Made by a program: the position numbers and the translations under genes. Under the pieces are notes generated by a model. It was given only the letters and a program-made list of their open reading frames with translations, did no database searches and was not told where the DNA came from. Positions 13,965 through 62,395 of a DNA stretch of 64,000 bases are shown here, in pieces (position 1 is the first letter of the stretch; each line of letters opens with the position of its first letter). The stretch is from contig NW_027266275.1 in assembly GCF_022045235.1 (NCBI RefSeq), positions 59,210,001-59,274,000 on the forward strand. The letters run 5' to 3'. The stretch is from Haliotis cracherodii. Its lineage: Eukaryota.

Positions 13965-13993
13965 CTTATCAAGAACAGAGATCAGTATAAATA
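13965..13993 (+). promoter_or_regulatory. Core promoter of copy B: GATA site (CTTATCA) plus TATA box (TATAAATA)
   Basis: TATAAATA at 13986-13993, 53 bp before the ATG; CTTATC at 13965-13970; position conserved in C and D. Confidence 0.6.
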
Positions 13994-14038
13994 GCTTCTT
14001 TACTCACTATATCTTCAGAACGGCTTCTTGAAGGCACC

Positions 14039-27365: not shown

Positions 27366-27657
27366 GTACCGAACAAACACGAGGGGCAACAGGCATGTCC
27401 AACATCAATGCATTTTGGAGGCTTTACAGGAAGCCATTGTCTTGATTAAAACATATATCCAGAAGGGCGCATGCGCGAGACAGGCAGGTCACGGATTTGA
27501 ATGCTCCGACAGAAAAGTGAAAAACCTGTCATTTCGTAAGTCTTAATCGCCTTTTACATGTTTTAAATCATCCCGGATCTTATTCTTGTGCACCGTCTTC
27601 GATTTTACATCAAGAAGAAACTTTTACACGAGATATTTCATACTTGCAACCTCGACT

Positions 27658-28584
27658 ATGTGTGACGTGTTGAGAGACAGTGACTGTGAATTTGTTGAGA
27701 CGGTCTTGGCTGCTACACTCATAAGCCAGTCCACAAGTGAAGACAGATTAGAACGAAAAAGAGCAAGAGACGAAGAAAGCAACGAAAGTTCTTCTAGGCA
27801 AGACGAATCGAAGAAAATGAAAAGTTCGGGAAATGCGAGCGAGCAGGACACAGTCGGCCCAAGCCAACATGGCGGGCTCAGGGGAGTTTCAAATCCAGCC
27901 AATGACACTGAAGTTAAAGGCATGCTTACCTTTCTGGTTAAAGAAATGTCACAAATGAGAACTGATCTCAACGACAGAATGTCAAGCTTTGAGAATAATC
28001 TAGAAACAAGGCTCACTGAGAAAATAGCAGCAATAACTGACGAGAAGATAAAGTTAGAAATAAACAGGCCGAGAAATGATATAGACTCAAGATTAGATAG
28101 CTTCGAAAAGAAAATACAACAATTTGAAAAGACTTTCTCAGAAGCTGCTAAATCCCAACCTCAAGACAGGATCTTCGAGAGATCTGTTGTTTTCAAGAAT
28201 CTGCAGGTTCACACAGACGAAGTAACGGACCCACAAGTTACAGTTAACAAGGTAACGGCTCTTATCAGGGACGGGTTACACCTACCAGACGTGAATGTAT
28301 CTAATGTTGAGAGGAAGAAATCCTATGGTAAATACCCTGGAGTAGTGTTAGCAACTATTGACACTTTGGACCAGAAAACAAAACTTATGAAGGTTAAATC
28401 ATCTCTGAAGAGCTCCCGTAAGTATAGTAACACTTTCACTGAAAATTGTACAACGTTGGAGGAGAGAATGCATAGCAACAATATGAGAACATTACTAAAG
28501 GAAATTGGGAAGGAAAATCTATATACTGTGAACAGAAGTGGATTTATTTCTAGGAAGAAAAATACCACAACTCCCCGGGCCTAG
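27658..28584 (+). CDS. LINE ORF1 (coiled-coil nucleic-acid-binding protein)
   Basis: Uninterrupted ORF (first ATG at 27658) immediately upstream of the APE domain. Confidence 0.75.
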   Translation: MCDVLRDSDCEFVETVLAATLISQSTSEDRLERKRARDEESNESSSRQDESKKMKSSGNASEQDTVGPSQHGGLRGVSNPANDTEVKGMLTFLVKEMSQMRTDLNDRMSSFENNLETRLTEKIAAITDEKIKLEINRPRNDIDSRLDSFEKKIQQFEKTFSEAAKSQPQDRIFERSVVFKNLQVHTDEVTDPQVTVNKVTALIRDGLHLPDVNVSNVERKKSYGKYPGVVLATIDTLDQKTKLMKVKSSLKSSRKYSNTFTENCTTLEERMHSNNMRTLLKEIGKENLYTVNRSGFISRKKNTTTPRA

Positions 28585-31500
28585 GGGGTCAGGCTTGGTC
28601 TGTGGAACGTCGGTGGATGGTCTCTAATGAATGTAAATAATAGACATTTTAGGGAAAATGCAGTTGGGTACTTTGACTATGATATACTATGTCTCTGTGA
28701 AACATTTCTACGGGATCAAGAGGACATTAGTCTAGATGGATATGTATGTTTCGGTAATGATAGAACAAACCTGTATACAACGCCTAAACGTGGATCTGGC
28801 GGTGTTGGGGTTCTTATAAAGACATCATTTATATCTAGATATAAAGTTGAAGCACTGTACAGTGACCAGGAGGATGTGTTATGGCTCCGTTTGTCTTCTG
28901 ATACTACAGTCGAGAGTCTATGTTTGTGTGGAGCGTATCTACCTCCAGCCGCTTCTACAAGGTCACATGATGTAGAAGAGTTTTTTTTATATTCTACTTC
29001 AACATGTTTATGAATATCAAAATCTTGGAAAAGTTGTCATCGCTGGCGACTTTAATGCACGCATTGGTAGTAACTCCGACTACATCGAAGTGTTGACGGT
29101 GTGGGGGAAAGGAATGCGATAGACGAGAGCGTAATGCAGCTGGGTACCTACTACTAGACTTTCTTATAGACTGTAATATGTGTGTTGTTAACGGTAGACT
29201 TGGAAACGACAACTTCACTTCTGTGTCGCATAGGGGTCGGGCTGTAGTAGATTACATTATTGTGCCTCATGAGCAGCTGAATGATGTGTCAGATTTTAAC
29301 GTGCATCTTATGTCAGACGTACAGAATTTTACTACTCAGATGGGATGTGACTGTATTCCTGATCATTCTGTGCTGGATGTAACGCGAGACCTACTTGCAA
29401 TTCAACCAGATTCTCAGTCTGACGATATGAAGCTGTTATCGGGTTGCTGGGATATACCAAGGTACAACGTAGCTAATGTACCGGACAGTTTCCTGAATGA
29501 TGAACATACTGCACGCAAATTACAAGATACACTTCAGAAGATAGACGATGCCCTAACACAAGGTCAAGACACTCACTCTGCATATGAGAAGTTTACTACT
29601 TTCATTAAAAAAGAAATGGACTTAAAGCTAAATAAGGTAAAGACATTTACTGAGAAAAACACCAACAACAGGCATTATTGTAGGCGAAAGCCATATTGGA
29701 CTGATGAATTACAAGTGTTATGGGATGGGGTTGGTGTAAAGGAAAAGCGCTGGTTGTCTTTTAAAGGTTGTGTTCATCGTAAACGTGTTCTTAAAGGCGT
29801 TTTTCAAGATGCAAGAAAACTGTTTGACAAGGCAAACCGCAAGGCGAGAAGATCATACCAGCTACAGAAACAAGAAGAACTAATCAGTTTACAGAACATT
29901 AACAGCGGCAGAGACTTCTGGAAAAAGATAGGTCGACTTGGTATAGCCAACGACAGAAAGTCTCGTTCCGTTATCCCTATGGAGGTGTTGATGCACGACG
30001 GGTCCGTGACCTGTGAGACTGACACTGTATTGGATCACTGGAAAACCTCCTACAGCACGCTTCATAACAGTAGTGGGAATAAAGCGTTTGAACTTTCTCA
30101 TTGCGATACTGTGTGTGAACGCGTGCGTATCGGTACCGTGGAGTGTGCAGATTATGATCTGTCGGTGTTGAACCGCTCTGTCTCAGTCCAGGAAGTTGAC
30201 CTTGCTGTTATGCAGATGAAGACAGGAAAAGCGGCTGGGTTAGACGGTATACCGGTAGAAGTACTACGAAATCCTCATTGTATTAACTTACTTCACGATA
30301 TTATTAATTATTGTTTTGAACGTTCAGTGTCGCCGTCTCAGTGGTGAGCAGGACTAATAACTCCTATTCCTAAGGACAAAAGTACCCCGTCAGATCCTTT
30401 GTCTTACAGGGGCATTACTCTCATATCAATACCCTGTAAAGTCTACACGTGTATACTGAACTGTAGGATACAGAAGTGGTTGGAGTATAATGATATTCTT
30501 ATGGAAGAGCAAAATGGTTTTAGACCTAAGAGAAACTGTACTGATCATTTATATGATCTTTATAATATTGTTAATAGCCGTAAAGCCTCTAAACGATCTA
30601 CGTGTGTCTGTTTTGTTGATATTAAGAAGGCTTTTGATAGGGTTAATCGCAATTGCCTTTGGTACAAGCTTATGTCTGTTGGTATTCATGTTAAAATGTT
30701 ACAAGCTATACAAGCCTTATATATGGACGTAAAGTGTGCAGTTAAGCTCAATGGTTTTATCACGGAATCTTTTAATGTTACCTTGGGCGATAAACTAGGA
30801 TGCAAGTTATCGCCAACGTTATTTTTCGTTTATGTTAATGATTTGGTGTTAGAAATTAATAAGTTAAACTGTGTCATACCTATTGAAAGTTCTGTGTTAT
30901 CAGTTTTGTTGAATGCTGATGATATAGCCTTGTTAGCTGAAGACAAAGACTCGTTACAGAAAATGCTGAATGTTTTAAATATATGGTGTCAAAAATGGCG
31001 TTTGGATATTAATTCAGACAAAACCAAAATCATGCATTTCAGAAACAAATCTGTGGCTAGATCTGAGCGAGTATTTGTATGCGGCAAATCTATTATTGAT
31101 TATGAAAGTTCTTACAAATATCTTGGTTTAACTTTTGATGAGCATTTAGATATGCACAAAACAGTCCAGGTGTTGTGTAAATCGGCTAGCAGAGCTCTTT
31201 CTGCGTTGTATTCAAAGTTTAAACACGCGGGTGGCATGTCCTACGAAGTATTTAACAAGCTTTATAAAGCTCTTGTAGAACCTGTTCTATTTTATGGTGC
31301 TGACATTTGGGGTTTGAATAAGTATAAGGAAGTAGAAATAATTCAAAATAAGGCTTGTCGTTTGTTTCTAGGCGTAAGAGAAAATGCCCCAGTTACTGCT
31401 ATTAGGGGGGACATGGGCTGGTGTTCTGTGAAAGTGTCACAGCACGTTGAATGCTTTAGATTATATTTTAGAATTCGGAATATGCAGGCCCATCATCTTC

Positions 31501-32130
31501 CTCTTATCATTCATAATTGGTCCAAAATCCGATCACAATCCTGGGATAAAAAATCGTAAATATCTTAGCTCACTATAATTTGTCATATTTACCTTATTGT
31601 GGATAGAGTGTGTTGACCGTGTAAAGTGTTTCTTAACTGCTGAAGATTGTGATATGTGGTAAAATGCGCTTTGGAATGACAAGAATAATCCAAATGGCAA
31701 TAAATTACGCACATACAGAATGTACAAATCATTACCTACTGCTGAGTCTTATTTATGTCATGTACGTTTTAGAGATCATCGAGGACTTTTAGCATCGTTT
31801 CGATGTGGTATTTTACCTTTACATTTTGAGACCGGCCGTTACGCCAAGCCACCTACCCCACTGTTGGATAGGACTTGTAAGTATTGACACGCCAATCCTA
31901 TTAATGATCATGTAAATTATGTTGAAGATGAATATCACTTTTTAATAGAATGTCCATTTTATGATGATTTAAGATACAACTTAGCTAAAGAAGCAATTTC
32001 AGTAGATAAAGCATTTCATTATATGAGTAGTTTAGAAAAGTTTCTTTTTATTATGAACGAAGAATCGCTCCAATGTATTTTAGCCAAATCAATTTACAAC
32101 ATGGTTAAAAGAAGGCAATTTCTTTTTAAG
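28585..32130 (+). pseudogene. LINE ORF2 (endonuclease plus reverse transcriptase) with frameshifts and stops
   Basis: Pieces at 28627-29013, 29178-30347, 30399-31559 and further fragments to about 32130; stop at 30345-30347. Confidence 0.85.
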
Positions 32131-37494: not shown

Positions 37495-39452
37495 TTATCG
37501 CCTAAAAAATGTCTGAATAATGTGCCGTCTTACATCAGCTCCATCATTTTGACCTGTAACAGGTGGCACATAATTATTCACATTTGATGATGGAGGCATT
37601 AGATTTTCATCATGATTTATAATATCCCCCCTTTCTATACCCAAATTATGCAACACAACACATGCAACAACATAGGTCACAGCCTGTCTTGGGGTCGCCT
37701 TGAGCTCATGGTACAGGCACTGAAACCGCCGTTTCAGGACACCAAAGGTCTGTTCAATGAGCACCCTTGTCCTGCACAATGACCCATGGTAACGATCCTC
37801 TGCACGGTTGGTGGGGTTCAGTAGAGGCGTCAGGAGGAACCAACGACATGGGTAGCCAGAGTCCCCCAGCAGAAAACCTTTGCACTGTCCTTAAACCTAA
37901 TAAAATAAGGTTATTTATTATTGAAAGAATAACAGAATGTTTTATGATTTGAATACTGGTAAAAAGTACATAAAATGAATGAATAAAATTGTCTCATCAA
38001 GAATTACAATATTTCAATATTGATCTTGAACAAGATGAATGAAATAAACTTTTCTCCAGGAACAAATACATTCATCCTAATTAATGGAACTGTTTAGTTA
38101 AAAAATAACTTGTGAGAAAATAATAATTGAAAATGAGGATATGAATCCAATCTAATTTATTAATTAAAATGGGTATGGAGATTCTGAGATTTTATACAGT
38201 GTCATATCCAGGGTTCCAAAGCAATTGCCCTTTGTATGTCACTTCAATTCAATGAGACGTCATACAAAAATATCTGTACATTGATTTAAATTTACTAACT
38301 GATTAACTTGCTACTTCTTGACATCTTAACTAATAATTACAATAACAGAAATGATTATATATTATTTGTTACAGGATAAAATATATGCTTGATCACTTGC
38401 AGAATACTTTCACCAAATTGTTCTAAAAACGTGTCATTTTCAAATTGCCTGCACAGTGCTGACGTCCGGAAAATGTGGCTGTCATGTACCGATCCCGGCC
38501 AGCTGGCGTTGCCACCTGTGATGTAAAGATTTGCATCACAGCACATCTGTGGGATAGAAAATCAGAAATTTAAACTCCAACTTACAATACATACATAAGA
38601 CTTACAAATATCACTCATCTCCCCACCCCTAAACCAACACATACATTATAACGAATACTTAAGGAGTAAAATTATGCCTATTTACCTGTACATTCAGGGA
38701 ATGGTAACCTTTCCGGTTCACGAAGTCTCCCTCGTTAGCGGTAGGTCGCTGTATCCTGATAAACGTTCTATCAATATACCCTACTACGTTAGGGAATCCT
38801 GTAAGTAAAACGTGTCATGGTGTCACAATAGATAGCATACTGTACTGGGCAGTGTTTAATAGTTTTCATTTACAGCCCATCCTAAAATCTATCGCTTGAT
38901 TATAATTTGATTTGATTTATATACATGACCTCGACCTCTGACCCATATTCTTTTTACTGACCAATCAAAATGGCACTGACACGAATCACACCAGTGAAAT
39001 CCTTTATTATGTTTACATTGGGAAAATCCCATGTACGTATCTGCAATGTTGCCGAATGCCTCCTTCGTTCGTACAGCGTCTCCTCCAACTGGGAATTTAA
39101 TGAACCTTCCTGACAGTTTAGATATTTTCAACGAAACTGCGCGTAAGCTTCTGCCGGCTGTCGATCGGGAAATGTTTAGGCTCTCCCCAACCAGCAGATG
39201 CATAGCGCCTGTCGCCAAGAAGCGAAGGCATACCAGCAACTGTGACAGTGGTGGAACCGCACAGTTACGAGCTGTCTCTCTGGTTAGATCGAGAAGACCA
39301 AGTAAATAAATTATAGTATTTGGTCTAAATCTATAACGTTCAAAAACTTCTTCCACATCTAAATCTTCCAGCGGGTTTGAACGATCTCGAAACACTCTCG
39401 GAACACGGGTTTTCCTCCTCCCTTGTCGAGTCTGTCGCAGGTGAGCTGCCAT
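37495..39452 (-). pseudogene. Harbinger DDE transposase (HARBI1-like), probably inactivated
   Basis: Exons 39452-39041, 38798-38686 (FPNVVGYIDRT..NRKGYHSLNVQ), 38546-about 38432 (WPGSVHDS), about 37890-37495 (LLGDSGY..IEQTFGVLKRRF..CVVLHN). The first donor reads AT instead of GT, and consensus IDGT reads IDRT. Confidence 0.85.
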
Positions 39453-40299
39453 TGTTGTTATCGAACTCAGCGTTGAGCACGGTCCAAAGCGTACTTGAGA
39501 TCGTACGTATTTCATGCTCAAGTTGAGCACGAAAACGTACTCAGATTATTTATAACCTCCGTTTATTGAGCCTGAGTTTTGAGTTGAGCACGAAACCGGA
39601 TTTGAGCATGAAATCGTACTCATGGAAGTTTTATAACCTCGGGGCCTGGACAAGACATGCTTCCCCTTTTCTCGAACATCAGTGTCATCACTCATTGTCA
39701 TTATTAATTCATATAATTGTCACCGCTCTTTTACGGCCAATGAAATTTGCGGATAATCGAGACTGGTTATTCTCTGGCCTTGACATGCTATATTTTCATT
39801 GGTGCTCAATGTATATTGAGTGAGTTTATAATGACAACTTAAAAAACTGCTATGTCGTTATTTTCTCATATTTTCCAAGTTCAATGTAACCTACAATAAA
39901 TAGTTACGTATTAATTCCATCAGCTTTGGCATTGGCACGTCATGAATTATATTCTATGGTTTCGTTATTAGGTAACATAAGACAACCTTAAAAGCCAGAA
40001 GACATCTTCTGCAGTTATAACCAGATAAGTGTAACACTAACTACCCGGTCACGTATTAATATTATTATAAGAATCTAGAATAAACAAACGTCCGTAATAC
40101 ATACATGTCTCATGCGTGATGCTATATATAGTAACAGGATACGGCGATTTCCCAGCATGCCAAGTACGAGCATGCGCAATTACGATTCAGGTCAGCCATC
40201 TTGTGCAGGGGTCATAATAATGACAAGCAATTTTTGATTCCGTACGTACGAGCGAATAGTTAAAATCAAGTGTGCCCTTTCTCTCAGGCGCACAGCAGT

Positions 40300-41841
40300 A
40301 TGGCTCCTAAAACTCGCAAGAAGCGAACGTCAAGCAGGATATCCAGGCAGGATACCGTGCGCGGTGAAGCCACAAGTTTTGGCGATGTTCCAGACAGTTC
40401 GCCTTCAACAAACATGGCCGCGCCCGATGTCGGGGTGCCTCGGCGACGATATAGTACGACGATCCCTCTCAGTGCAGTGGACAGCCGCCCATATGAGATG
40501 TTTCCACGGAATTGGACTACGGGACGTATCTGTGCATACATCGAGGAAATATTGGATATTAAGCCTCCCGGGGGGTTGACACGTGCGCAATATCAAACCT
40601 TTTACACAGAAAACCTCCCAGACCGTAACAAAAGGATGGACAGACAAAGGTCAGCATTGTCGGACGGGTCGTCAGCCAGAGCCAGCACAGTGGCAGTTCA
40701 TGAGGAAACGGTGCCCCCTCATTCGATTGTTAACGAGGCACACACTGACACAACAATCGCCCAGCTTGTGGACACCGTGAACAAGTTACAGCAGACTGTG
40801 GCCACGCTGAGTTCTCAAATGGATGCCAGGAATCAGCCTGCTACGGTGCCACGCACTTCACATTGGCAGACCACCTTTGCAGGACCGGGTCAACCACATG
40901 ACAATCCGGCCGCTATCCATGCGACGTCACAGCCGTTTAGTTTATTTACTGCCATACGGGAATCGACCAACACAGGATCAACTACTCCACGTCTGTTCAC
41001 CAGTGAGCCTCAAGCGCAGCACTTACCAGACGTAGCTCTTGTTTCTCCCTCTCTCCGGAAGAGCATTCAGGAAGGTAAGGATGTGAACCTTGCTTTACTA
41101 CTCATTCCGGATGAAATAACGTCAAATGCTAGAACCATTCAGGTAGACAATGTAAACATGCAACTCAAAAGTCCTCATGACTCCAGATTGCAGTTGCCCT
41201 TGACATTTGACATGTTCATCACAGCCTTTGGAAAGTACAAAGCCATCATGTGTTTACGCTGGCCACAGAGACGAGCCGAACTTGACGCGTATCAGCGCCT
41301 GATCGTTGATATGCACAACCAATATCAAAATCAACTCTTTTATCAATATCACAAACGTTTCTCGGCTAAAGCGGCAGCTTATCTTGAGCAACATAATTGC
41401 AAAATACCATGGGGAGAGATTGACGATGCCATCTATAGAGCTGTCTTTACAGGACGCAGAATCACCGCTTGCCAGTTGTGTGATGACATTGGTCATTCGA
41501 CGCAGTTCTGTTCTATGGTTGATGCCAAGTCCATACATCACCAACCAGGAGAGACTTTTAACCATACTCCCACGACTAGGGACAGAGAACTCAACACAGA
41601 ACGCAGAGGCATGGATCGCCGGGGAAGGGAAGTGCTCATACACAAAGGTATCCCATTGTGCAACAACTTTAATGCTGAGAAATGTGTTCACGGGAATTGT
41701 AGATTTAGACATTTGTGTTCTGTATGTCGAAAGCCACACCCTGCTTTCGAATGTTGGCATAACACAGTAGAGACTCAATTCCCAGCAGGCAAGTCGATAC
41801 CTGTCCAGAATTCTTCCTCGGCCAAAAAGCACCGACAGTGA
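40300..41841 (+). CDS. Ngaro ORF1 (gag-like, C-terminal Cys/His zinc fingers)
   Basis: First ATG at 40300; CQLCDDIGHSTQFC and CNNFNAEKCVHGNCRFRHLCSVCRKPHPAFEC. Confidence 0.88.
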   Translation: MAPKTRKKRTSSRISRQDTVRGEATSFGDVPDSSPSTNMAAPDVGVPRRRYSTTIPLSAVDSRPYEMFPRNWTTGRICAYIEEILDIKPPGGLTRAQYQTFYTENLPDRNKRMDRQRSALSDGSSARASTVAVHEETVPPHSIVNEAHTDTTIAQLVDTVNKLQQTVATLSSQMDARNQPATVPRTSHWQTTFAGPGQPHDNPAAIHATSQPFSLFTAIRESTNTGSTTPRLFTSEPQAQHLPDVALVSPSLRKSIQEGKDVNLALLLIPDEITSNARTIQVDNVNMQLKSPHDSRLQLPLTFDMFITAFGKYKAIMCLRWPQRRAELDAYQRLIVDMHNQYQNQLFYQYHKRFSAKAAAYLEQHNCKIPWGEIDDAIYRAVFTGRRITACQLCDDIGHSTQFCSMVDAKSIHHQPGETFNHTPTTRDRELNTERRGMDRRGREVLIHKGIPLCNNFNAEKCVHGNCRFRHLCSVCRKPHPAFECWHNTVETQFPAGKSIPVQNSSSAKKHRQ

Positions 41842-43464
41842 CTACAGGCAACCCCATCCCCTGTTGACTTGGATAGACTGTCTCAACGGTTGTCTGATCA
41901 CCCAGACCGTGCCTTCGTTCAGACGTTGCTGCATGGTTTTAAATTTGGTTTTGACACGGGCATTACATGTCCACCTACTCACACTACTGTCTGCAAGAAT
42001 CTGTTATCAGCTCGAAACAATCCTGAAGCAGTAGCCACCATTATTCAAGATGAACTATTCAAAGGCTATTTGATAGGTCCATTTACGCAGTCTCCTTTCC
42101 CTCACCACAGGGTTAATCCAATAGGCATTGTGGAAGGAAAATATTCCAAAAAGAAGCGATTAATTGTCGACCTCTCGGCTCCACATGATGATGTGGAAAA
42201 CCCAAGTTTGAACTCATTAATTGATAAAGAACAATTCTCCCTCAACTATGTGAAAGTGGACGACGCTATCCAACTTATCAAAGGCATGGGACAACATGCT
42301 TACCTATGTAAGGTGGACATAACAGATGCATTCAAAATGCTTCCAATTCACCCTTCTTTATATCACTTACATGGCATATCATGGGATCATCAGCTTTATT
42401 ATTACACTCGCTTGGTCTTCGGATGTCGGTCCAGTCCAAAACTGTTTGATGGCCTGTCTGCAGCAGTGTGTTGGATTGCCACTCATGTGTATGACATTGT
42501 CAATATATTGCATCTTTTGGATGATTTTTTGACTGTGGATAAGGATTTGGAACAAGGCATCAGCACCATGAACAAACTAGAATGCCTATTCTCGGAACTG
42601 AATATCCCCCTGTCCCCCCATAAAACGGTCGGTCCGGTCACATGTTTGGAATACTTGGGGATTATTTTGGACACTGATAGAATGGAAGCGCGTCTACCTA
42701 CTGAGAAAGTGTCAAGAATCGTCTCTATCATGGCAACTATTCAAGGTGCCAAGAAAGTCACAAAGCAGTTACTGCTCAGCATTATTGGTCATCTAAATTT
42801 TGCTATGCGGATTATTCCAGCGGGTAGGGCATTCATCAGTTACCTCCTTCAACTGGCCCACTCTGTGAAACACCTACGACATCGGGTCACTTTGAACAAA
42901 CAATGTCGTCTAGATTTTGATATGTGGAGAACATTCTTACGCGATTGGAATTGCCGGTCGTTTTTCTTGGAAGACCTAATCGCAGCCCCCCAATTTGACC
43001 TGTACACAGATGCTGCTGCATCAGTTGGTTTCGGAGCTTACTTCCAGGGTAAATGGTTCGCTGCTCCATGGCCGGTTGACTTACTGCAAGCTACCACAGA
43101 GGACATGTCCATTGCCTTACTCGAACTTTACCCTATCGTTATGGCGGCTGCAATCTGGGGGAAGCTATGGACTAACAAGAGTATCAGATTTCATTGTGAC
43201 AATATGGCTACTGTTGACATCCTTTGCAAATGTCGGTCTAAATCTCCATTCATCATGTGTTTGATAAGGAAATTTGTATTGACAGCTGCCAAATATAATT
43301 TTGTATTCAGCGCCCAACATATACCTGGAAGAGTTAACCATATTGGTGATGCTTTATCTCGCTTCCAGATGACCAAGTTCCGTCAACTAGCTCCCACTGC
43401 CGAACCTGCTCCAGAAACATGTCTACATCTATGTCAGCTCACCTTACCGCCAGTCCAGACTTAG
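41842..43464 (+). CDS. Ngaro ORF2 (reverse transcriptase plus RNase H), in frame with ORF1
   Basis: HPD..F..GF, RLIVDLS, KVDITDAF, FGCRSSP, LLDDF, YLGI; RNase H motifs TDA, LELYPI, CDN, HIPG..N..GDALSR. Open from the codon after the ORF1 stop. Confidence 0.92.
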   Translation, partial: LQATPSPVDLDRLSQRLSDHPDRAFVQTLLHGFKFGFDTGITCPPTHTTVCKNLLSARNNPEAVATIIQDELFKGYLIGPFTQSPFPHHRVNPIGIVEGKYSKKKRLIVDLSAPHDDVENPSLNSLIDKEQFSLNYVKVDDAIQLIKGMGQHAYLCKVDITDAFKMLPIHPSLYHLHGISWDHQLYYYTRLVFGCRSSPKLFDGLSAAVCWIATHVYDIVNILHLLDDFLTVDKDLEQGISTMNKLECLFSELNIPLSPHKTVGPVTCLEYLGIILDTDRMEARLPTEKVSRIVSIMATIQGAKKVTKQLLLSIIGHLNFAMRIIPAGRAFISYLLQLAHSVKHLRHRVTLNKQCRLDFDMWRTFLRDWNCRSFFLEDLIAAPQFDLYTDAAASVGFGAYFQGKWFAAPWPVDLLQATTEDMSIALLELYPIVMAAAIWGKLWTNKSIRFHCDNMATVDILCKCRSKSPFIMCLIRKFVLTAAKYNFVFSAQHIPGRVNHIGDALSRFQMTKFRQLAPTAEPAPETCLHLCQLTLPPVQT

Positions 43465-44441
43465 ATGTTTTGTGGTCGCAAGCTGTGTCAAAAGCCACCA
43501 GGGCGGTATACAGAGCAGGGGTTCAAGCCTTTTTAACCTTCATGGCTATGTGCGGGTTTGTGTGGCAGCCCCGTGTGTTACCTCCATTATCGGAAGATTC
43601 ATTGTTATTGTTTGTAGCCCACTGCCATCAGCGACTACATTTACGTTATACGACCATCAAGAGTTATCTGTGTGGAGTGAGATTCACTTATCTGAGGCAT
43701 AATGTGCCAAATCCATGGTGTTCTAGGAATCTGCTACGAGTAGAAACAATCATGAAAGCTATCAAGAAAGAACAAGGTGTGAACCCAAGTGTGCGATTAC
43801 CAATTACTGTTGACATTTTACAGCAGATTTGGATCACCCTAGAGAAAGGACTATTTTCACCGTTCACAGACTTATTGATGAAGACTGTGTGTTCAGTCGC
43901 CTTTTTTGGCTTTCTACGTTGTGGAGAATTTACATGTGACCATTTTGATGCAAAATTTCATTTGTCTCTAAGCTCTGTCGTGTTTAGACCAGATTGTACA
44001 TCGTTTGATTTGACACTTAAATCGTCTAAGACAGATCCTTTTCGCAGGGGTATAACATTGTCCATCCATGCAGTGCCAACATCTTATTGTCCGGTGCGTT
44101 GTCTACAGGAATTTATTCATCATAGGAGGGCCATGGGAGCTGCTCAGCATGATCCTTTATTTGTTAATGAGCAGAATATACCTCTTACCAGGTCTTTCTT
44201 TATTCAAAAATTAAAACACACATTGTCCATGACAGGATATGACCAAGAGAAATACAACGGTCACTCATTTCGTATTGGTGCGGCTACCTCAGCTTCCACG
44301 GCTAATATTCCAGACCACCTGATCAAGACTCTAGGCCGGTGGTCATCAGACTGTTATGTTCGATATATTAGGGTGCCCAAATCATCCATAGCACAGGCTC
44401 AGCGTGCAATGGCACAAAATAGGGGTAACTGCTTGTCCTAG
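43419..44441 (+). CDS. Ngaro ORF3 tyrosine recombinase
   Basis: Catalytic set present: R (FLRCGE), K (SKTD), H-x-x-R (HSFRIG), W (GRWSS), Y (YVRYIR). Overlaps the end of ORF2. Confidence 0.93.
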   Translation: MSTSMSAHLTASPDLDVLWSQAVSKATRAVYRAGVQAFLTFMAMCGFVWQPRVLPPLSEDSLLLFVAHCHQRLHLRYTTIKSYLCGVRFTYLRHNVPNPWCSRNLLRVETIMKAIKKEQGVNPSVRLPITVDILQQIWITLEKGLFSPFTDLLMKTVCSVAFFGFLRCGEFTCDHFDAKFHLSLSSVVFRPDCTSFDLTLKSSKTDPFRRGITLSIHAVPTSYCPVRCLQEFIHHRRAMGAAQHDPLFVNEQNIPLTRSFFIQKLKHTLSMTGYDQEKYNGHSFRIGAATSASTANIPDHLIKTLGRWSSDCYVRYIRVPKSSIAQAQRAMAQNRGNCLS

Positions 44442-46516
44442 ATGTATATTTAATGCCTTTGGGGATTCTCAGTCAATTCTTTACTTCGATTTTGGGTATA
44501 TTTACCCCTGCAGTCATTAGGATGGGATGCATTGGATGCATGTTGTCAAAACACAGGTCAGGCTTGACCTCCATCATGTCCATGGTATTTAGCATCTAAT
44601 ACGTTTCTATCTGTAGTGTAGAATGATAGATGTGTAGTTAATTGTCGAAACCTTAGTATTCTATGTATCACTCTCGACAATTGATCCCAACAGCTTGGGC
44701 CTGACCGATGCTCAGTCAGGTACACATAAGTCAGGTACATGTAGTCGATTCTCCTGTGTTTATACCCAATGCTTGGGAAGTTGTGAAAGGCGAATCGATC
44801 CCTAGCTGGGCATGACTGATGCTCAGTCATGTACATGTACCAATAGCTTTCTAGTCACATGTTTACAGTGAGAATCCCCTTACGCCAAACTTGTTAGATA
44901 TGTGTTATATTGAACGTGTTTCAGGTATTAAATCATTGTTGCAACTTTCGTGTTGAATTGTCATTATAAATTGGTGCTCAATGTATATTGAGTGAGTTTA
45001 TAATGACAACTTAAAAAACTGCTATGTCGTTATTTTCTCATATTTTCCAAGTTCAATGTAACCTACAATAAATAGTTACGTATTAATTCCATCAGCTTTG
45101 GCATTGGCACGTCATGAATTATATTCTATGGTTTCGTAATTAGGTAACATAAGACAACCTTAAAAGCCAGAAGACATCTTCTGCAGTTATAACCAGATAA
45201 GTGTAACACTAACTACCCGGTCACGTATTAATATTATTATAAGAATCTAGAATAAACAAACGTCCGTAATACATACATGTCTCATGCGTGATGCTATATA
45301 TAGTAACAGGATACGGCGATTTCCCAGCATGCCAAGTACGAGCATGCGCAATTACGATTCAGGTCAGCCATCTTGTGCAGGGGTCATAATAATGACAAGC
45401 AATCCCACCTCCATCCCCAACTACCGTCCATGTTTTTCCTTGTTGCACTCTTATTTTTTCGTTTGTTTCTGGATTCTCACTGTTATATTAAAATTTTGTA
45501 TTAGCAATCGGGGTATATCTACCCCTGCAGTCATTGGGTATATTTACCCCTGCAGTCATTAGGATGGGATGCATTGGATGCATGTTGTCAAAACACAGGT
45601 CAGGCTTGACCTCCATCATGTCCATGGTATTTAGCATCTAATACGTTTCTATCTGTAGTGTAGAATGATAGATGTGTAGTTAATTGTCGAAACCTTAGTA
45701 TTCTATGTATCACTCTCGACAATTGATCCCAACAGCTTGGGCCTGACCGATGCTCAGTCAGGTACACATAAGTCAGGTACATGTAGTCGATTCTCCTGTG
45801 TTTATACCCAATGCTTGGGAAGTTGTGAAAGGCGAATCGATCCCTAGCTGGGCATGACTGATGCTCAGTCATGTACATGTACCAATAGCTTTCTAGTCAC
45901 ATGTTTACAGTGAGAATCCCCTTACGCCAAACTTGTTAGATATGTGTTATATTGAACGTGTTTCAGGTATTAAATCATTGTTGCAACTTTCGTGTTGAAT
46001 TGTCATTATAAACCAGTCTGCAACAGATGACAGATGGTTACTCGGCAACTCAGGTGATTTTAGGCAGTACGGTCACTACCAGGAATGGTCAGGGTACTTT
46101 CAGGTCAGGTCAGTAGGGTAATTCATATTAGGAAAGGTCAGTTTCTTCGGTTCAGACAGGTTCGAATGCTAGAAAGGCAGATCGTTTATTCCATGGAAAG
46201 CCAGATGCCCCCGTTTATCCGAAACAGGATTCAGATTTCTCGTCAGTTGTTAGATGTAGATATTGTCACAAGCCACGTCCCATACTCATCACAAACATCA
46301 GAAACTTCTCCCCATGCTTTTGTGAATGTCAAGTCCTAGCCGATTTCTGATGTCATTAACACTGAGGTTGAGTATGTTCGGTTACCAAAGTCTGCTATAT
46401 TTTGAGAGGAGCACTTGCCTTTATTTGTAGTCACTTAAAGGGGTTCAATATACATTGCGACCTTTGGAATCAATACGTAACACTTTGACAATCGCCAAAC
46501 GTCCGCTCCCACGGTC

Positions 46517-46545
46517 CTTATCAAGAACAGAGATCGGTATAAATA
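46517..46545 (+). promoter_or_regulatory. Core promoter of copy C: GATA site plus TATA box
   Basis: CTTATC at 46517-46522, TATAAATA at 46538-46545, ATG at 46591. Confidence 0.6.
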
Positions 46546-46590
46546 GCTTCTTTACTTACTATTATTTCAGAAGGGTTTCTTGAAGGCACC

Positions 46591-49500
46591 ATGTTGGGGG
46601 TTGTTCTCATCCTATTCGTTGGGCATGCTCTTGCTGTACCAATAGATCAGGTCAGTATATTACACCGTTCTTAATAGGCGATAAGGGCGGTCGGGTAGCC
46701 TAGTGGTTAAAGCGCTCGCTCGTCACGCCGAAGACCCGGGTTCGATTCCCGACATGGGTACAATGTGTGAAGCCCATTTCTTGTGTCCCCCGCCGTGATA
46801 TTCCTGGAATATTGCTAAAAGCGGCGTAAAACCTCACTCACTTATTTGGCGATTTGTTTCAGGTCACTATTGATTAAATTTTCGTAACTTTTCTAAAACC
46901 ATACAAAGTAAACGCTTGATTAAGTTTGAATTTAAGATTAATGGATAATTGTCTTATCGGAAAGAGACCGACATACCCCAGATGCTTAAAGATCAAATTT
47001 GAAACATTAAACAAAAGTTTGAGTCACACCTTATTTGTAAAGAAACAAAAAACCTTTGTTTCTCTTATTCAGCTTCCAGACTTCGATGGTAAGTGCAATA
47101 TGATGCATAAACATATAGCTTTGAGGTAAGCGCTTTTACAAGCGTTTATTTATAAACGAATCACATCCTTTTTCTAAAGGTGTTTATCAACTGTTTGGCT
47201 GATGTAAGGCAACATTCATGTATGGTGTGATACCACCTCACCTGGCTACACTACCTGCAGGCATGCATGCAAACAGCCAGTTTGTGATCTGTGGACATAC
47301 CGTCATCTCAGTTTTGTTTGTTTGTTGTTTAACGCCGCACTCAGCAATGTTCCATCTATATAGCGGCGGTCTGTAAATAAAAGAGTCTGGACCAGACAAT
47401 CCAGTGATTGGGCATGGCCATTGATTCACGCAATTGGGATACCATGACATGCATCATCAACCACCAATTTAAGTCTCAGTTATGACACACATATGCTACA
47501 ATAGACTCAGTGACAAGGTGTTTGTTGAAATTGATATATAAATGAACATTTAATTGTTTTGTAATTTTTGCATTAATTTTTGAAATTTGAAGATAATGTT
47601 CATTTAGTCATTGTCTGCAATTAAGTACGGACCTCCGTATCAACACTACAATAGTACCATAATAAAAACCACGATTTTCAAATTTATGTCAATATCAAAT
47701 TAAAGCTTTAAAACTATATTCTTGTTTTACTTTTTTAGAGGCGTATCCGGAAGAAAACCCTGGTAGGTTTACAAATAATTAAGATTATTAAGATTTTCTT
47801 CGAAAGTTTGTATAAGTCCTTTTAATTATCACGTCGCTATATAAGTGCAATAATTTGGAACGCGATATTGAACTCCATTTCACCTCACCACTGCACCTGT
47901 TTCATGATATTAACCTAAATAATGAGTGGACAGACATATATCTGTACTTTTGAAGATTCACAGAAAAATGAGTCAAATGATTTGTGGAAAGTGTTCCAAA
48001 TGTTTGCTATGTCGATAGACATTTGTTCATGATATCAAATGGTTGGGGACCATTTGTGTCTTGATGTCTCATTTGACCAAAACCGACCATACTCACTTGC
48101 CTTATTTATTTTGAATCAGTGCGATAACGATTTTGCAATAAAAGAAGTCATGATGTCATTTTTTCTTTTAAAAAGGCATTCACTTTCCACCCACGCATCC
48201 ATTTTTGTCATAAAAGTATTTTACTATATAAACCAAATGAATATTTGTTTTTGTCAGGCCTCTTCGAGGGAGATATCATTCTGATGCCAGGACAAAACCC
48301 CAACGTAAGGCATTTTGTTTTGTATAAAATTAAATAGGATGAGAAAAATGGAAAAGTGTTTAAAGTATCATGTCATAACATGAACTTTTTCAATCATTGT
48401 GATATATGCAAACTTCAGTATTGTCAAAACATGTCTATTTTACAGGACAGAAATGCGAGAAGAGACAAAAACTACCGATGGCCAAATGGCGAAGTTCCTT
48501 TCGAAATTGACACCCATCATTTCTGTAAGCAATGAAAAGTTGTTCTGAACAAACATAAACAATTAAAGATGAATTTGGATTTCAATACATGTGCATGAAT
48601 AAATACAATAATTTGAAATTGAAACAATAAATATCACATTTATAATTTGAAATCATTCCAAAATAGTTATTTTCAAAATTTCAAATGTTTCAATGACATA
48701 GTTTTGAATATAGGACAGCTACATGAATGCTGCCGTAACAACAATGAATTTTAACGTAATCAGAGAGCACTTCATACACGTTGCTATGCATATCTCGGTT
48801 ATCACATAGATTTTCTAATGTAGCATCGTCTGAGGAGAGTACCATACATACTGCCATGCAGACAATTCATGAGAAGACCAAGGTCAATGGCAAAGCGTGC
48901 ATCACTTTCAAACCCCGCACACACGAGCATGCCTACATACGATACGCGGGAGGATCGGGGTAAATACCACATAGTTCATTTATAGAACTAGCTGTACCCA
49001 TCACATCATGCATTTGAAACAAACACTGTACTATTCAGTTAAATTGCTTGCATAATGGTATGCATGTAACTTTGATAAGCTCTACATACTCATTATCTGA
49101 TCAATTTACTTGACATCATTCCAATACAAAATGTGAGGATACAAGAAAGAAGGTACACATATACTTGTGTCACTTGACTTGAAGGAGGGATTGTACCCGT
49201 GAAGATCCGGGTTAGAATAGGTCTTCAGCAACCCATGCTTGTCGTGGGAGGCGACTATCGGGATCGACTGGTCAGGCTCGCGACTTGGGTGATGCATGTC
49301 ATCGTATTCCAATTGTGTGGATCGATGCTCATGTTGTTAATCACTGGATTGTCTAGTCTAGACTCGATTGTTTACGGACCGCCGTCATACAGCTGGAATA
49401 TTGCTGAGTGCGGTGTGAATCAACAAACAAACAAATGAAGGAGGGGTTAACATGCGAATATATGAACTGATGCATGACAGGTGATGCAAAACATAACCAA

Positions 49501-52500
49501 AGTACTCTATATATAAGCAGGAAAAATTACAATGGCTGATCGTGTGTCGTTCCAGCAAAAACATGAATGTTAAACTGATATGAAAGCTCTCCAAATATGT
49601 GGTTGGTTTGGAAATATTTTAACAAGGGGTTGCATTTCGTCCATGTAACTGCGCTGAATGTGTAATCAAACTGGCAAATTCAAGGGTAATGCATGGCAAA
49701 GTCATAGGGGACAATATGTCTCCATCACCCTATGTTTGGGAATGGGAACGGATTGTTACAATGAGTGGCTGGGTTTGGTATGCTTCATCGCATATCTCCA
49801 ACAATCAATGCAGGTTTCATCCTTCCAGCACAAACTGATTTAACTGCAACATGCACTGCGGTGCCGATATAACAAATGGGACATTTCGAAACATACCACT
49901 GAGTCCATAAAATGTATGTTGGTGCAGGTGCCATACTCCTGTAGGACGTCACAGTGGCTTGGATGTCGTGACTCTCGGCAGTGGATGCATGAAGTTAGGA
50001 ACCGTCATGCACGAGACCATGCACTCCCTGGGGTTCTGGCACGAGCAGAGTCGTCCCGACAGAGATAATTACATCACTATTGAATGGAGCAACATCAGGA
50101 AGGGTACATGTTTTTTATATAAAACCACATAAGGGGATATTGGTGTAGATCCGAATATCTTTGCTGCTCCATGTGGACAATTTTGATATTGCGACTTCAA
50201 TTTGTTATTTTTATGTGACAGGGAGCAGCACAAAGATCCGGTTACCTCAGCTAACCCAGTATAGAGAAGAGTCACATTATGAAAGGTCATTTTGGAAGTT
50301 ATTTTGTTCAATTCAGTCAACATTACATGGATAATGTCTTTCAGTTTTTTAGTTTTCTGGGGCTACATCTATCTGCTGTTAACTGTTAATGTATGTAACA
50401 CGATAACAGTAAACTTCGGTTATAACGAACTGAAAGGGACCAATTTTTTTTTCCGTTATAACCGTAGTTCGTTATAATCGTTTCAACTAAAGGATACCGC
50501 AAATGGCCGGGATCCAAAACAACAGTTCGTTATATCCGTCACTTCATTATAAGTGTGTTCGTTATAAACGTAGTTCACTGTAGTTTATCTTTAGATAGTA
50601 ATATAAATGTTTTGTTAAAATGAACTGATTCATTAAATACATTAATATATACTTTTTAATAAACCTCTTTGGCGGTGTCAATACAATGAATATCACAAGG
50701 CGAAATCTTCAATTCAGCATACCACCTCACCCATACTTCAAATGATTTTTATTAATTCAGGCCATGAAAAAAACTTTGACCGCCGAAGCTCTGTAGAAGC
50801 CGACACATTTGGGAGACCTTATGACTACGAGTCTGTGATGCATTACAACGCCTATGAGTTCGCTATAGACCGCTCGAAGCCAACGATCATCGTCAAAAAG
50901 AAGGGGGTGTCGATTGGACAGAGAGACCACCTCAGCCATGGGGACATTCAAGAAATGCAAATCTACTACGGCTGTTCAACTCATTCGGGGAAACGCAACT
51001 CAAATCCCTCTACGTGTAAGTTGGATATCCATATCAAAAGCGTTCGTGATCTTTAAATGGAGTAACATTACCAACATACGTGCCTTATCTTAGGTGGTCC
51101 GAAAAATGGCCCAGATAAACATGTTGTTAAAAACCAGCAAGCAGCGACGCCATCGTGATGCGATAATACACGGCCAAGTTACCGTATTCGACGTAATAAG
51201 CGCCCCGCTCTAATAAGCGCCTACGGCGATATATGCGAATATATTGTCTAGTGAACAATCCCAATTAACCATCCTTCCGATTGATCAATGTTCACAAGAC
51301 TTATTTTTTCGCGTATGATATGCACTCGTGTGTCATATGCAACCTTAATTATGGGCAATAAATTCTGGAAAAATATATCTGTCGTACATGAACACGAAAT
51401 TTATCTTTTCACTCTGTTTTTTTTCCACCAGAATAATATTTTAATAAGAGCCCCCTATTTCTAATTTTGAGAGCGCCATGGGCGCTTCGTACGTCGAATA
51501 CGGTATGCATATGAACCAACCGATCCCCATTCGGTCGGATGTGAGCATGTCTAACACAACAGCTGAAATATATTACTGAGCAATCGCATCAATAAGGCTT
51601 AAACATAATTTTACTTTTAGTATTCATTAGGAAACCTTGAGACTTTGGACATTCGATCATTAATGGTACGTGTTTTGGTCTTTTCATGTAGCCTCTGAAA
51701 CATGCAATTTCCAAACTGATCTCTGCAAATGGCAGAATGGTGGAGACATTAACTGGATCCGTACCAGAGGAAGCACTTCGACCTCACACACAGGACCCAC
51801 GACTGATCACTCCGGGTCATCAAGCGGTGAGTGATGGGGGTGTTACTAGCGTGCCATTGATACACTCTGAAACCCCGTAAAATCTTCCACGTAATGACAT
51901 TTCCGAATTAACGCATATTAGCTCTGTCATATGATTTAATGATATTTTGTTATGCCAAACAGAAATACATAGGAAGCCAAACTTCCGGGCTGACGGTAGC
52001 CAGATAAAGGTGGGTTGTCTGCAGTATATCACCAATGGCGCAGCACGTCCAGACTCACCAATTCAATGATTCAATTTATTGTCCAATGACGAATATTTCT
52101 TGGTTTGTTAGGTAATACTTATACGCTATGGAAATCATGTGAAATTTATGATTTGTTTCTTGAAGTGTTTCCGCGGGCAGATGCTTCGTACAAAAACTCT
52201 ATACCGGAGTCAATAAGTAAATAACACATCTGGGCGAGTTGAAAAACGAAAACAAACGCCAAAGAAATAATAATATTTATTATTTCCGTGGAATTTTATT
52301 CTGACCATGAATGCCTTTTCATTACATATAGTTATGAAAACGAACAGAAACCTTTATTATGTATTACCTTTCAGGTTACTATGCCTACCTTGAAGCATCG
52401 GGAAATGAACACAAGAAAGGCTACCTCTTGTCCGAGACATTCGCTGCAGGCAACTACTGTCTGAGCGTCTACTACAGCATGCATGGCCACGACGAAGGAA

Positions 52501-53170
52501 GTCTGAAACTAGGGATGCAAACAGGAGGCCATGATACGAACTTGCACACTGTGTCTGGTGATCAGGGTCACGGGTGGCATCACTACATGACCAACCTCGA
52601 AGTTAAAACTGGGGACTTCAAGGTGAGTTCACTGCTAGACGAGGTACGTCCCTAACAGGATATGGAACCAATGCTATATCACTCAAACAGATTGCAAATG
52701 CTGAATTGTCAGGTTCAAAATTCAAACTGAGTTGTTTAGTGAGATGAGATATGCGTGAGATATGTTACAGCCATACCACGAGCCAAACATAAAAACCGTA
52801 TCACAAATGCAGTCTTGCTTTCTTTCAATTGACTTGTCTTTCCATGTGTTTGTGACGGGTGTCACCGATGGAGCAAGATACACTCGCCTTTTCGTGGACA
52901 CTTTGTATCACCCCTATTCGATAGTGATTCATAAACATATACTCATGACATAGTCGGAATCTTTTCAGAGACTCTGCTTTTAATCCTTTAATGTGAGTCT
53001 TGCGGATGGACTCTCCAGTTGACCGTTAACCATTTGTACTATTGTTTCATGTGTAACGCCGATCTTCCTTGTTTTAGGTTAAAATAGAAGGCGACATTGG
53101 CAGCGCCCACAGAAGTGACATTGCCATTGATGATCTGACTGTTACCAAAGGCGACTGTTCTTCACTATAG
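46591..53170 (+). CDS. Secreted astacin-MAM metalloprotease, copy C (422 aa)
   Basis: Exons 46591-46650, 47073-47088, 47739-47762, 48258-48304, 48446-48524, 48824-48959, 49928-50103, 50761-51015, 51692-51826, 52375-52622, 53078-53170. Exon sizes match copy B; zinc motif and Met-turn intact. Confidence 0.93.
46685..46842 (+). mobile_element. SINE family 1 in intron 1 of C (paralogs: 55273-55422 in D; internally deleted 14137-14202 in B)
   Basis: A box, B box, body and ACTC tail. Confidence 0.85.
51182..51503. mobile_element. Same MITE at the paralogous site in intron 8 of C
   Basis: Same TIRs, TA flanks and insertion site as 18537-18858. Confidence 0.9.
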
Positions 53171-53959
53171 CAGAGTTACCAGCTGTCGAGCGTGACTTCA
53201 TTAAGATATGATTCTTATTTCATGGAATGTCAATAAACTGTAATGTTATACAGTTAGCGTTATTATTTCATTTTGTTTCTCATAAATTGTTTATCAAAGA
53301 ATTCCTGATGAACTTATGTGATAAAATATTGAGTTCACCAGATTAATTCAATTTGTGCCTGTTGCCATCAGATTACGAAGCGAGTGAAAAGTTGGGCATG
53401 TGTTGCAAAGAGAATAAATATGCATGTACCTACATATGCATATTCCAGGTATTTATAGTACCTCGCTAAAGACATCGGACACGATAATCTACCCGCTTGA
53501 AAAAGCCTTTAAATCGCATCGAATCAATATTCAAGCACAAACATAAATTTGACAAGAACAACTTTATGGATAAATGGATAACAACCTTCTGGTTTGATGC
53601 ACACAGCCACGTTTTGATGTAGATTCTTACACCGTTATGAAGCTGGAGCAACCAAGTGATGAGAGGTATATATAAAACAAGCTGATAATTGGATGAAGCA
53701 AAATGTACAGTCGAGGGGTTGAGGGTTGGACTGGGGTGCGGCAATTAGCTTTGATAATAATTCTAAGGGATGGGTAGTCAGTGAAGATGGTATCGATACC
53801 TGTTTGGATAAATTGGACACTTTCATAACGTATCAGGCATGTCCAACACCAATGCATTTTGGAGTCTTTTCAGGAATTATTGTCTTGATTAAAACATATA
53901 TTTATGGAGGTACTTTGGGACGATTCAGCTTTGGCGTTGGCGCTGCTTGGGGTAAAATA

Positions 53960-54420: not shown

Positions 54421-55108
54421 TAGATCAGGACAAGACATGCTTCCCCTTTTCTCAAACATCATTGTCATCTCTCATTGTCATTATTAATTCATATAATTGT
54501 CACCGCTCTTTTACGGCCAATGAAATTTGTTTCGGCGGATAATCGAGACTGGTTATTCTCTGGCCTTGACATGCTATATTTTCACCAGTCTGCAACAGAT
54601 GACAGATGGTTACTCGGCAACTCAGGTGATTTTAGGCAGTACGGTCACTACCAGGAATGGTCAGGGTACTTTCAGGTCAGGTCAGTAGGGTAATTCATAT
54701 TAGGAAAGGTCAGTTTCTTCGGTTCAGACAGTTTCGAATCCAAGAAAGTCAGATCGTTTATTCCATGGAAAGCCAGATGCCCTCGTTTATCCGAAACAGG
54801 ATTCAGATTTCTCGTCAGTTGTTAGATGTAGATATTGTCACAAGCCACGTCGCATGCTCATCACAAACATCAGAAACTTCTCCCCATGCTTTTGTGAATG
54901 TCAAGTCCTAGCCGATTTCTGATGTCATTAACATTGAGGTTGAGTATGGCTGTAGTGTTCGGTTACCAAAGTCTGCCATATTTTGAAAGGAGCACTTGCC
55001 TTTTATCTCAAAGGGTTTGTAGTCACTTAAAGGGGTTAAATATACATTGCGACCTTTGGAATCAACACGTAACACTTTGACACTCGCCAAACGTCCGCTC
55101 CCACGGTC

Positions 55109-55137
55109 CTTATCAAGAACAGAGATCAGTATAACTA
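55109..55137 (+). promoter_or_regulatory. Core promoter of copy D: GATA site plus altered TATA box (TATAACTA)
   Basis: Paralogous to the B and C promoters; TATAAATA is changed to TATAACTA at 55130-55137. Confidence 0.5.
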
Positions 55138-55182
55138 TCTTCTTTACTTACTATTATTTCAGAACGGTTTCTTGAAGGCACC

Positions 55183-61100: not shown

Positions 61101-61452
61101 CAAGATCAAAATTCAAACTGAGTTGTTTAGTGAGATGAGATATGCGTGAGATCTGTTAAAGCCATACCACGAGCCAAACATGAAAACCGTATCACAAATG
61201 CAGTCTTGCTGTCTTTCAAATTGACTTGTCTTTTCATGTGTTTGTGACGGGTGCCACCTGTGCCGCCCTTTAATGTGAGTCTTGCGGATGGACTCTCCAG
61301 TTGACCGTTAACCATTTGTATTATTGTTTCATGAGTAACGCCGATCTTCCTTGTTTTAGGTTAAAATAGAAGGCGACATTGGCAGCGCCCACAGAAGTGA
61401 CATTGCCATTGATGATCTGACTGTTACCAAAGGCGACTGTTCTTCACTATAG
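55183..61452 (+). CDS. Secreted astacin-MAM metalloprotease, copy D (422 aa)
   Basis: Exons 55183-55242, 55522-55537, 56206-56229, 56724-56770, 56913-56991, 57295-57430, 58675-58850, 59490-59744, 60083-60217, 60766-61013, 61360-61452. Exon sizes match B and C; catalytic motifs intact. Confidence 0.93.
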
Positions 61453-62395
61453 TAGAGTTACCAGCTGACGAGCGTGACTTTATTAAGATATGATTCTTAT
61501 TTCATGGAATGTCAATAAACTGTAATGTTTTACAGTTAGCGTTATTATTTCATTTTGTTTCTCATAAATTGTTTATCAAAGAATTCCTGATGAACTTATG
61601 TGATAAAATATTTAGTTCACCAGATTGACTCAATTTGTGCCTGTTGCCATCAGATTGCGAAGCGAGTGGAAAGTGGGACATGTGTTGCAAAGAGAATAAA
61701 TATGCATGTACCTACATATACATGTACCAGGTATAAATAGTACCTCGCTAAAGACATCGGACACGATAATCTACCCGCTGGAACAAGCCTTTAAATCGCA
61801 TCGAATCAATATTCAAGCACAAACATAAATTTGACAAGAAAAACTTTATGGATAAATGGATAACAACTTCTGGTTTGATGCATACAGCCACGTTTTGATG
61901 TAGATTCTTACACCGTTATGAAGCTGGAGCAACCAAGTGATGAGAGGTATATATAAAACAAGCTGATAATTGGATGAAGCAAAATGTACAATCGAGAGGG
62001 CGGGGGTGGGGGTGCGGCAATTAGCTTTGAGGATAATTCTAAGTTATGGGGGGGGGGGGGGGCAAAGATTGTATCGATACCTGTTTGGTGCTAAAGTAAT
62101 CTGCTGATTTGATGAGAGGTCTTGCAAATGAAGGGGAGGGTGATTGTGATGGGGGCGTATTCTGATCTGGTTCGTTTGGGTTTGGGCAGGTGTATGGTGG
62201 AGATAGTCCTCTTGTGTTGTGTGGATAAATTGGACATTTTGACGACGTATCAGGCATGTCCAACAGCAATGCATTTTGGAGTCTTTTCAGGAAGCCATTG
62301 TCTTGATTAAAACATATATTTATTCAATAAATGAATCTAGATTGGTAAACAAGTCATCTGACTTATGTTAACACATCTCCGTACAAACTAATATA

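Follow-up and report, generated by a model that had tools for sequence, protein, structure and literature searches.

Ngaro-like tyrosine recombinase (YR) retrotransposons of the order DIRS are described with split direct repeats, the order gag, reverse transcriptase/RNase H (RT/RH, pol) and YR, a recombinase frame overlapping pol in -1, and insertion without target site duplication (available text of PMC6681497, PMC7192593 and bioRxiv 2021.08.05.455354). An element sharing all these features was found in a stretch of 64,000 nt from Haliotis cracherodii (contig NW_027266275.1; hereafter the window, whose positions are used below). In the consulted parts of published accounts, Ngaro-like elements display overlapping or alternate frames (Xenopus, amphioxus), which agrees with the usual description of DIRS-order elements given in the original prediction for this locus. 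In contrast, gag and pol of the window element lie in the same frame and are split by one TGA. Our comparisons indicate that Gag-Pol is probably made by readthrough of this leaky UGA-CUA on the full-length RNA, which is the best explanation for the arrangement.

The gag-pol junction and its relatives

ORF1 (open reading frame 1; 40300..41841, + strand) codes for a gag-like protein of 513 aa with a C-terminal Cys/His zinc finger and a basic tail. The junction reads CGA CAG TGA CTA CAG GCA ACC. Its TGA (41839-41841) terminates ORF1, and the frame is then open to 43464 as pol ORF2 (RT/RH; 41842..43464, +; 540 codons). The joined frame counts 1054 codons, with the stop at codon 514. A single in-frame TGA with CTA next to it, as originally predicted, was thereby confirmed at 41839-41844. 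Type II readthrough is characterised by two ORFs in one frame with a UGA between them and CUA or CGG directly after it, and UGA-CUA is the type II consensus in the available text of PMC3159437, in agreement with the leaky context that had been proposed. TGA-CTA (41839..41844, +) is thus a candidate type II site, with W-L at the corresponding position of fused database proteins (see below). Among the 6984 stop triplets of the window, 21 (0.3%) are TGA-CTA and 54 are TGA-CTA or TGA-CGG. An AUG start would indeed truncate RT, since ORF2 has no in-frame ATG before codon 149 (42286), which lies 50 residues inside the Pfam RVT_1 match (start at residue 99), and the similarity of relatives to ORF2 begins within its first 6 residues.

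Under readthrough, most ribosomes on the full-length RNA would terminate at the UGA and release the 513-aa Gag, and in a minority a near-cognate tRNA would read the UGA, helped by the leaky CUA context, so that a 1054-aa Gag-RT-RNase H protein would result. The rarity of the event would ensure a high Gag:Pol ratio, presumably its role in stoichiometry, and the recombinase would be supplied by a separate spliced RNA.

The TGA at the gag/pol boundary is probably a family-level feature and not a private mutation, judging from related proteins. The closest Gag (P0048, 50% identity over the conserved region) ends at the residue aligned with the window stop, and 149 of the 150 best among 1301 Gag representatives do not run into pol, although some of these stand-alone Gags may be cut by contig ends. 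Of 47 long pol relatives, eight are ENA fusions in which a tryptophan (W) occupies the junction and 18 are fusions of the fish type. The remaining 21 are for the most part named gene models skipping the junction or members of other lineages. Together with P0199, drawn from the 43 matches of a separate search for Gag-only twins of the fusions, the eight ENA proteins make up a set of nine database Gag-Pol fusions whose junction contains exactly one W, the next residue being L in eight of them and Q in one. This W lies 14-44 residues past the zinc finger and 32-68 before GxxxGF (28 and 32 for the window junction). The other 451 linker residues of the W fusions include no W and 19 L.

A Gag tree of 189 rows (the locus L001, described below, was left out and its Gag tail represented by P0185) showed that stand-alone sisters end at the residue just before the W of the fusions. 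P0199 (..DKSNQ-W-L) belonged to a Gag clade of support 1.00, where the stand-alone Gags terminate in NQ (five) or SQ (one). P0001 and P0010 were paired with P0086 and P0113, respectively, both stand-alone Gags ending in N (0.97 each). P0001 and P0010 also displayed a W at the pol end of the family (position 34 after ADxLSR, the usual end being 33-36), where a TGA read as W would produce one. Gene callers pick code 4 (TGA=Trp) on some contigs, and the simplest reading would be that the junction W is a TGA decoded as Trp by such a code-4 caller. No conserved Met was present after the W in the fusions, the first Met occurring 20-179 aa further on. P0163 (..KKF-W-LITP) was considered as a tenth readthrough case and dropped, because its frame does not run on into that of pol. 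The excess of K/Q/N-type last residues in stand-alone Gags (90/135 versus 61-68/135 at the four preceding positions) was also discarded as too weak and too general.

Other junction types were encountered among relatives. A genome scan returned five loci (L001-L005) with pol 47-51% identical to that of the window, all complete or near-complete animal-type retrotransposons lying on contigs of two Sedimenticola metagenome-assembled genomes. These contigs are most likely animal-host DNA contaminating the Sedimenticola assemblies. L001-L004 are about 68% identical to each other at the nucleotide level and L005 is decayed. In L001-L004, pol lies in the -1 frame with a gag/pol overlap of 52-67 nt. 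The heptamer A_AAA_AAC (TCA AAA AAC), among the most shift-prone ones according to the available text of PMC5009743, was found in phase inside the overlap in 4/5 loci (L001 2789-2795; L002 756-762; L003 5950-5956; L004 711-717), the fifth being the decayed L005. No stimulatory structure was found after these slippery sites in L001-L004 (z -0.4 to +1.9). A matching xKN motif was observed just past the zinc finger in 16 stand-alone Gags of the Gag tree.

Open gag-pol frames constitute the third type: 18 of the 47 long pol matches are fish-type fusions with Y-L-[SK]-[TS]-P-[VI]-[NV] at the junction, and P0025 and P0171 are further open fusions. A second fish lineage (P0014, P0021, P0022, P0024, P0027-P0029, P0103, P0125, P0181 and P0183) displays Gags ending in ..KKF with a pol frame open upstream and, examined by hand, fits a -1 overlap. 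In a quick version of the pol tree, the window element, the W clade, the -1 loci and mollusc models formed one group (98), with the fish elements apart.

One and the same boundary is thus occupied by an in-frame stop, a -1 overlap or an open frame. Each of these junction types predicts a Gag-Pol fusion, which makes readthrough the best candidate explanation for the in-frame stop, and this shared predicted outcome is the strongest indirect argument in its favour. The 1054-aa Gag-Pol of the original prediction is upheld as probable, but as one of three junction types and not as the Ngaro rule.

Probable readthrough and its alternatives

Several observations weigh against readthrough at this site. 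In the available text of PMC3159437, UGA-CUA alone yielded only 0.4-2% readthrough in a Sindbis reporter and, in that of PMC2194720, the gag-UGA-pol junction of the Candida element Tca2 did not direct readthrough in S. cerevisiae. A second copy of the window junction was not seen, the element being single-copy within the window. The alignment of related junctions suggested earlier as a check gave W-L in most fusions at the protein level, but brought neither DNA of an in-frame relative (the genome scan yielded four intact loci, each with the -1 arrangement) nor support from stem covariation. The eight W fusions fell into one pol clade (99, quick tree) and are therefore not eight independent cases. 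Their in-frame status is also ascertained, as only in-frame TGA junctions can show as code-4 fusions. No near-identical full-length Gag-only twin of these eight fusions occurred among the 43 matches, so that in some of them the W may genuinely be encoded by TGG; the twin search gave only P0002 fragments of 79-99% identity, and no fragment spanned the junction in frame. Stop loss to TGG is a common single change.

The 3' stem put forward in the original prediction belongs to the same side of the balance. The stem-loop (41845..41896, +), with its 9-bp outer helix 41845-41853/41888-41896, does exist in the minimum-energy fold, but as a possible stimulator it received mixed and modest support and is not clearly above chance. 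The region scored z = -0.02 over 125 nt, with a best z of -1.8 among 20 windows and about 0 if the fold starts at least 8 nt after the stop. Of four contexts, three gave a pairing probability of 0.7-0.97 and one gave 0.13. Local helices as stable as this one occurred in 1.25% of the element's 12-offset windows, at 4 sites within 4.1 kb, a figure to be read with the fact that the stem arm was chosen after the event. Long-range helices 7-26 nt past the stop were no better than background, and Rfam returned two sub-threshold matches, taken as chance, and nothing near the gathering score.

Pol might alternatively be made apart from Gag, through reinitiation, a near-cognate start (TTG 41869, CTG 41878) or a spliced or internally started RNA. 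Foamy-virus pol is a precedent for separately made pol. The element very likely splices (see below), and the gag donor could be linked to pol through a weak phase-1 acceptor at 41906, which has a counterpart in L003 at the same H-P-D codons. In addition, an ATG in L004 overlaps the gag stop of that locus, and the Tca2 junction holds a minor promoter (available text of PMC2194720). Yet acceptor 41906 scores -0.4 versus 5.4 for the YR acceptor, occurs in two of five elements and would cut conserved residues, and the strong acceptor at 42111 is of phase 2, 90 codons into pol. Since no conserved phase-1 acceptor was found at the pol start (weak ones in 2/5 elements), splicing does not readily explain pol. 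The spliced RNA supplying an AUG, named beforehand as a refuting case, thus finds neither a usable AUG nor a conserved in-frame acceptor there. Separate synthesis is unlikely in view of these points, of the lack of a conserved Met after the junction, and of the L or Q after the stop, the -1 slippery sites of relatives and the open fusions, all of which it leaves unexplained.

The stop could also be bypassed on the full-length RNA by a non-local or non-canonical route, i.e. a distant RNA element, an element-encoded factor or selenocysteine. Such a route was left open for Tca2 in the available text of PMC2194720, and a strong canonical 3' structure is missing 7-26 nt past the stop of the window element. 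However, the local context matches the type II consensus and accompanies the stop in related elements, and a crude scan for selenocysteine insertion sequence (SECIS) patterns gave one weak match (-6.3 kcal/mol), to which the silence of Rfam may be added, making this route improbable. As for a private nonsense mutation (e.g. from TGG) in a defective copy of an open gag-pol family, open fusions do exist (the 18 fish-type ones, P0025 and P0171), the W of the nine database proteins might literally be TGG, and a decayed long interspersed nuclear element (LINE) in the window carries an in-frame TGA (30345-30347, context TGA GCA). Against it stand the nearest Gag ending at the same position, the 149 of the 150 best Gags that stand alone, the sister Gags stopping just before the W, and the lack of any fused relative above 55% identity among the 47 long matches, in itself weak evidence. 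Moreover, this copy is of very recent origin and shows no other damage, and a random stop has such a context 0.3-0.8% of the time. This second refuting case is accordingly rendered very improbable by the junctions of relatives, and readthrough remains the preferred reading.

Element structure, predicted splicing and surroundings

The element (39798-46012) is a young, apparently intact Ngaro-type retrotransposon that was recently inserted, as judged from its near-identical terminal repeats, three open ORFs and clean empty site. Split direct repeat A1 (39798..40231, +) forms its 5' end and is identical to A2 (44970..45403, +) at 433/434 nt. A2 abuts B1 (44492..44970, +), itself identical at 479/479 nt to B2 (45534..46012, +), which forms the 3' end. 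Self-comparison of the window thus gave the Ngaro-like order A1-ORFs-B1-A2-B2. ORF3 (43350..44441, +; Phage_integrase, E=2.8e-06) codes for the YR and overlaps the pol end in the -1 frame, and the order gag, RT/RH, YR given by ORFs and Pfam is likewise that of Ngaro-like elements. Insertion occurred in a repeat with an empty copy at 54584. The flanks rejoin at one shared A and, compared with this empty site, a target site duplication is absent, again as in Ngaro-like elements.

ORF2 stops shortly past ADxLSR and Pfam reported RVT_1 only. A general Pfam scan, with no dedicated methyltransferase profile, did not find a methyltransferase domain after RNase H, and in this respect the element is Ngaro-like rather than DIRS or PAT; the pol tree was built without DIRS, PAT or VIPER references. 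Window pol is 47% identical to P0015 ('TPA_exp: polyprotein [Danio rerio]'), which we take to be DrNgaro1. Comparison with the PDB gave two weak matches, both protease/RT/RNase H chains. The Gag belongs to no Pfam family and has 1301 relatives at E<=0.001, only three matches reaching E<=1e-40. Its nearest Atlas cluster is mostly molluscan (score 0.94). Plasmid and phage collections gave no match. Inspection by eye revealed a donor-like CAG/GTCAGC in repeat A1 (40188-40196), a pyrimidine-rich acceptor just upstream of the gag ATG (40268-40290) and a TATA-like run near 40123. An intron of the 5' untranslated region from the A1 donor to the pre-gag acceptor is possible.

A splice donor was predicted in gag (GAAG/GTAAGG, 41072..41080, +; intron start 41075, phase 1). 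It is the best-scoring gag donor, as in L002-L004, and is weak in L001. The donor is conserved at a synonymous site: its codons GAA GGT are identical in the window and L001-L004, and among 77 invariant four-fold columns this is the only one in which a single codon is used. The predicted acceptor lies at the YR frame start (TTCCAG/ATG, 43349..43372, +; first exon base 43369, phase 1), where a phase-1 CAG acceptor was found in 5/5 elements, with scores, based on approximate position frequencies, of 5.4 for the window and 0.8, -1.4, 0.3 and 0.3 for the loci. Donor and acceptor lie at 2104/4355 in L001, 65/2322 in L002, 5271/7519 in L003 and 35/2286 in L004. Database protein P0093 is joined at exactly the window donor and acceptor sites, and L003 and L004 display no Met within the first 50 YR codons. 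A spliced Gag-N/recombinase mRNA, whose intron 41075-43368 would remove the junction and most of pol, is thus probably produced, and would encode a 615-aa protein in which Gag 1-258 is joined to YR. The weak acceptor scores of L001-L004 weigh against splicing, and the Gln occurring within four residues after [AS]D[AS]LSR in 25/27 pols may be a protein constraint. Strong local helices were present in the pol/YR overlap of three of the four loci (L001 4362, L002 2333-2336, L003 7555-7563). These could instead serve the frameshifting that Poulter and Butler suggested for YR (quoted in the available text of PMC13003380). Unlike their proposal, the present comparisons suggest splicing for YR.

A broader, retrovirus-like programme for animal Ngaro elements, of a kind that we did not find described for YR retrotransposons, can be outlined, which in our view might equally well prove right or wrong. 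Unspliced RNA would serve for Gag and, by recoding, for Gag-Pol, lineages would switch at one boundary between UGA-C readthrough, A_AAA_AAC -1 frameshifting and an open frame, a conserved intron would give the 615-aa Gag-N/YR, and no protease would be encoded by the element.

Elsewhere in the window, a segment of ~7-8 kb occurs in three copies, mostly 90-99% alike (13576-20459, 46148-53321 and 54720-61603), with the Ngaro insertion immediately preceding the second. The decayed element at 27547-31559 (+), presumably a LINE, comprises an ORF1 and an endonuclease/RT frame; the TGA GCA in its coding region, already mentioned, shows ordinary decay. A 218-codon frame (38889-39545, -) without Pfam match resembles what we assume to be the N-terminus of a Harbinger/HARBI1-type nuclease. 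Broken transposase frames and an RT fragment at 8147-9219 (-), 62619-63747 (-) and 24080-25418 (-) are presumably Tc1/mariner-like transposases and a Penelope-like RT fragment.

Comparison with known recoding systems

Full-text literature searches, together with passage searches in PMC8547959, PMC3783388, PMC7192593, PMC6681497, bioRxiv 2021.08.05.455354, PMC2632668, PMC13003380, PMC9341512, PMC5009743 and PMC13517186, did not reveal any description of readthrough or frameshifting between gag and pol, or of a spliced YR, for DIRS-order elements, consistent with the earlier statement that readthrough was not known to be characterised in YR retrotransposons; Goodwin and Poulter 2004 and Poulter and Butler 2015, outside the searched text, may mention the arrangement. 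The searched supplements of PMC10294476 contain family names only. AUG-less expression of pol and recombinase in DIRS-order elements is a matter of guesswork in the literature searched, and this locus offers exact sites for testing, namely the stop, the splice donor and the splice acceptor, to which a sister clade adds a slippery heptamer. If the proposed mechanism is true, a widespread group of animal retrotransposons would join the users of programmed readthrough and would provide a natural series in which readthrough, frameshifting and open fusion replace one another. Intact copies are likely to be mis-called as broken, gene callers inventing introns or Trp codons at the junction.

The gag-stop-pol arrangement itself is already known, being established in murine leukaemia virus (MuLV, a gammaretrovirus) and present in Tca2, according to the available text of PMC2194720. 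Like the window element, MuLV has gag and pol in frame around one stop, and its fusion sets the protein ratio (same source). It differs by a UAG-G followed by a pseudoknot after an 8-nt spacer (type III), instead of UGA-CUA (type II). Ngaro elements lack a protease and a DDE integrase (available text of PMC3783388), and their Gag-Pol fusion would therefore not be self-cleaved, unlike that of MuLV. Tca2 is closer in being a retrotransposon whose gag and pol are split by an in-frame UGA but, unlike the window element, it is a long terminal repeat element whose pol includes protease and integrase. The same six bases as in the window are found in alphavirus-type UGA-CUA/CGG sites. In the texts available, stems of this type start 7-9 nt past the stop (the spacers of PMC3159437) and span 100-200 nt, with a structure overlapping the stop in one virus of PMC13517186, whereas the window candidate begins 3 nt past the stop, spans 52 nt and lacks covariation support. 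The natural switching between stop and sense codons in chikungunya virus (PMC13517186) resembles the open fish fusions. The window junction is thus probably a case of a known mechanism in a group where we did not find it described, and gains in interest from the predicted intron and from relatives with a -1 or an open frame.

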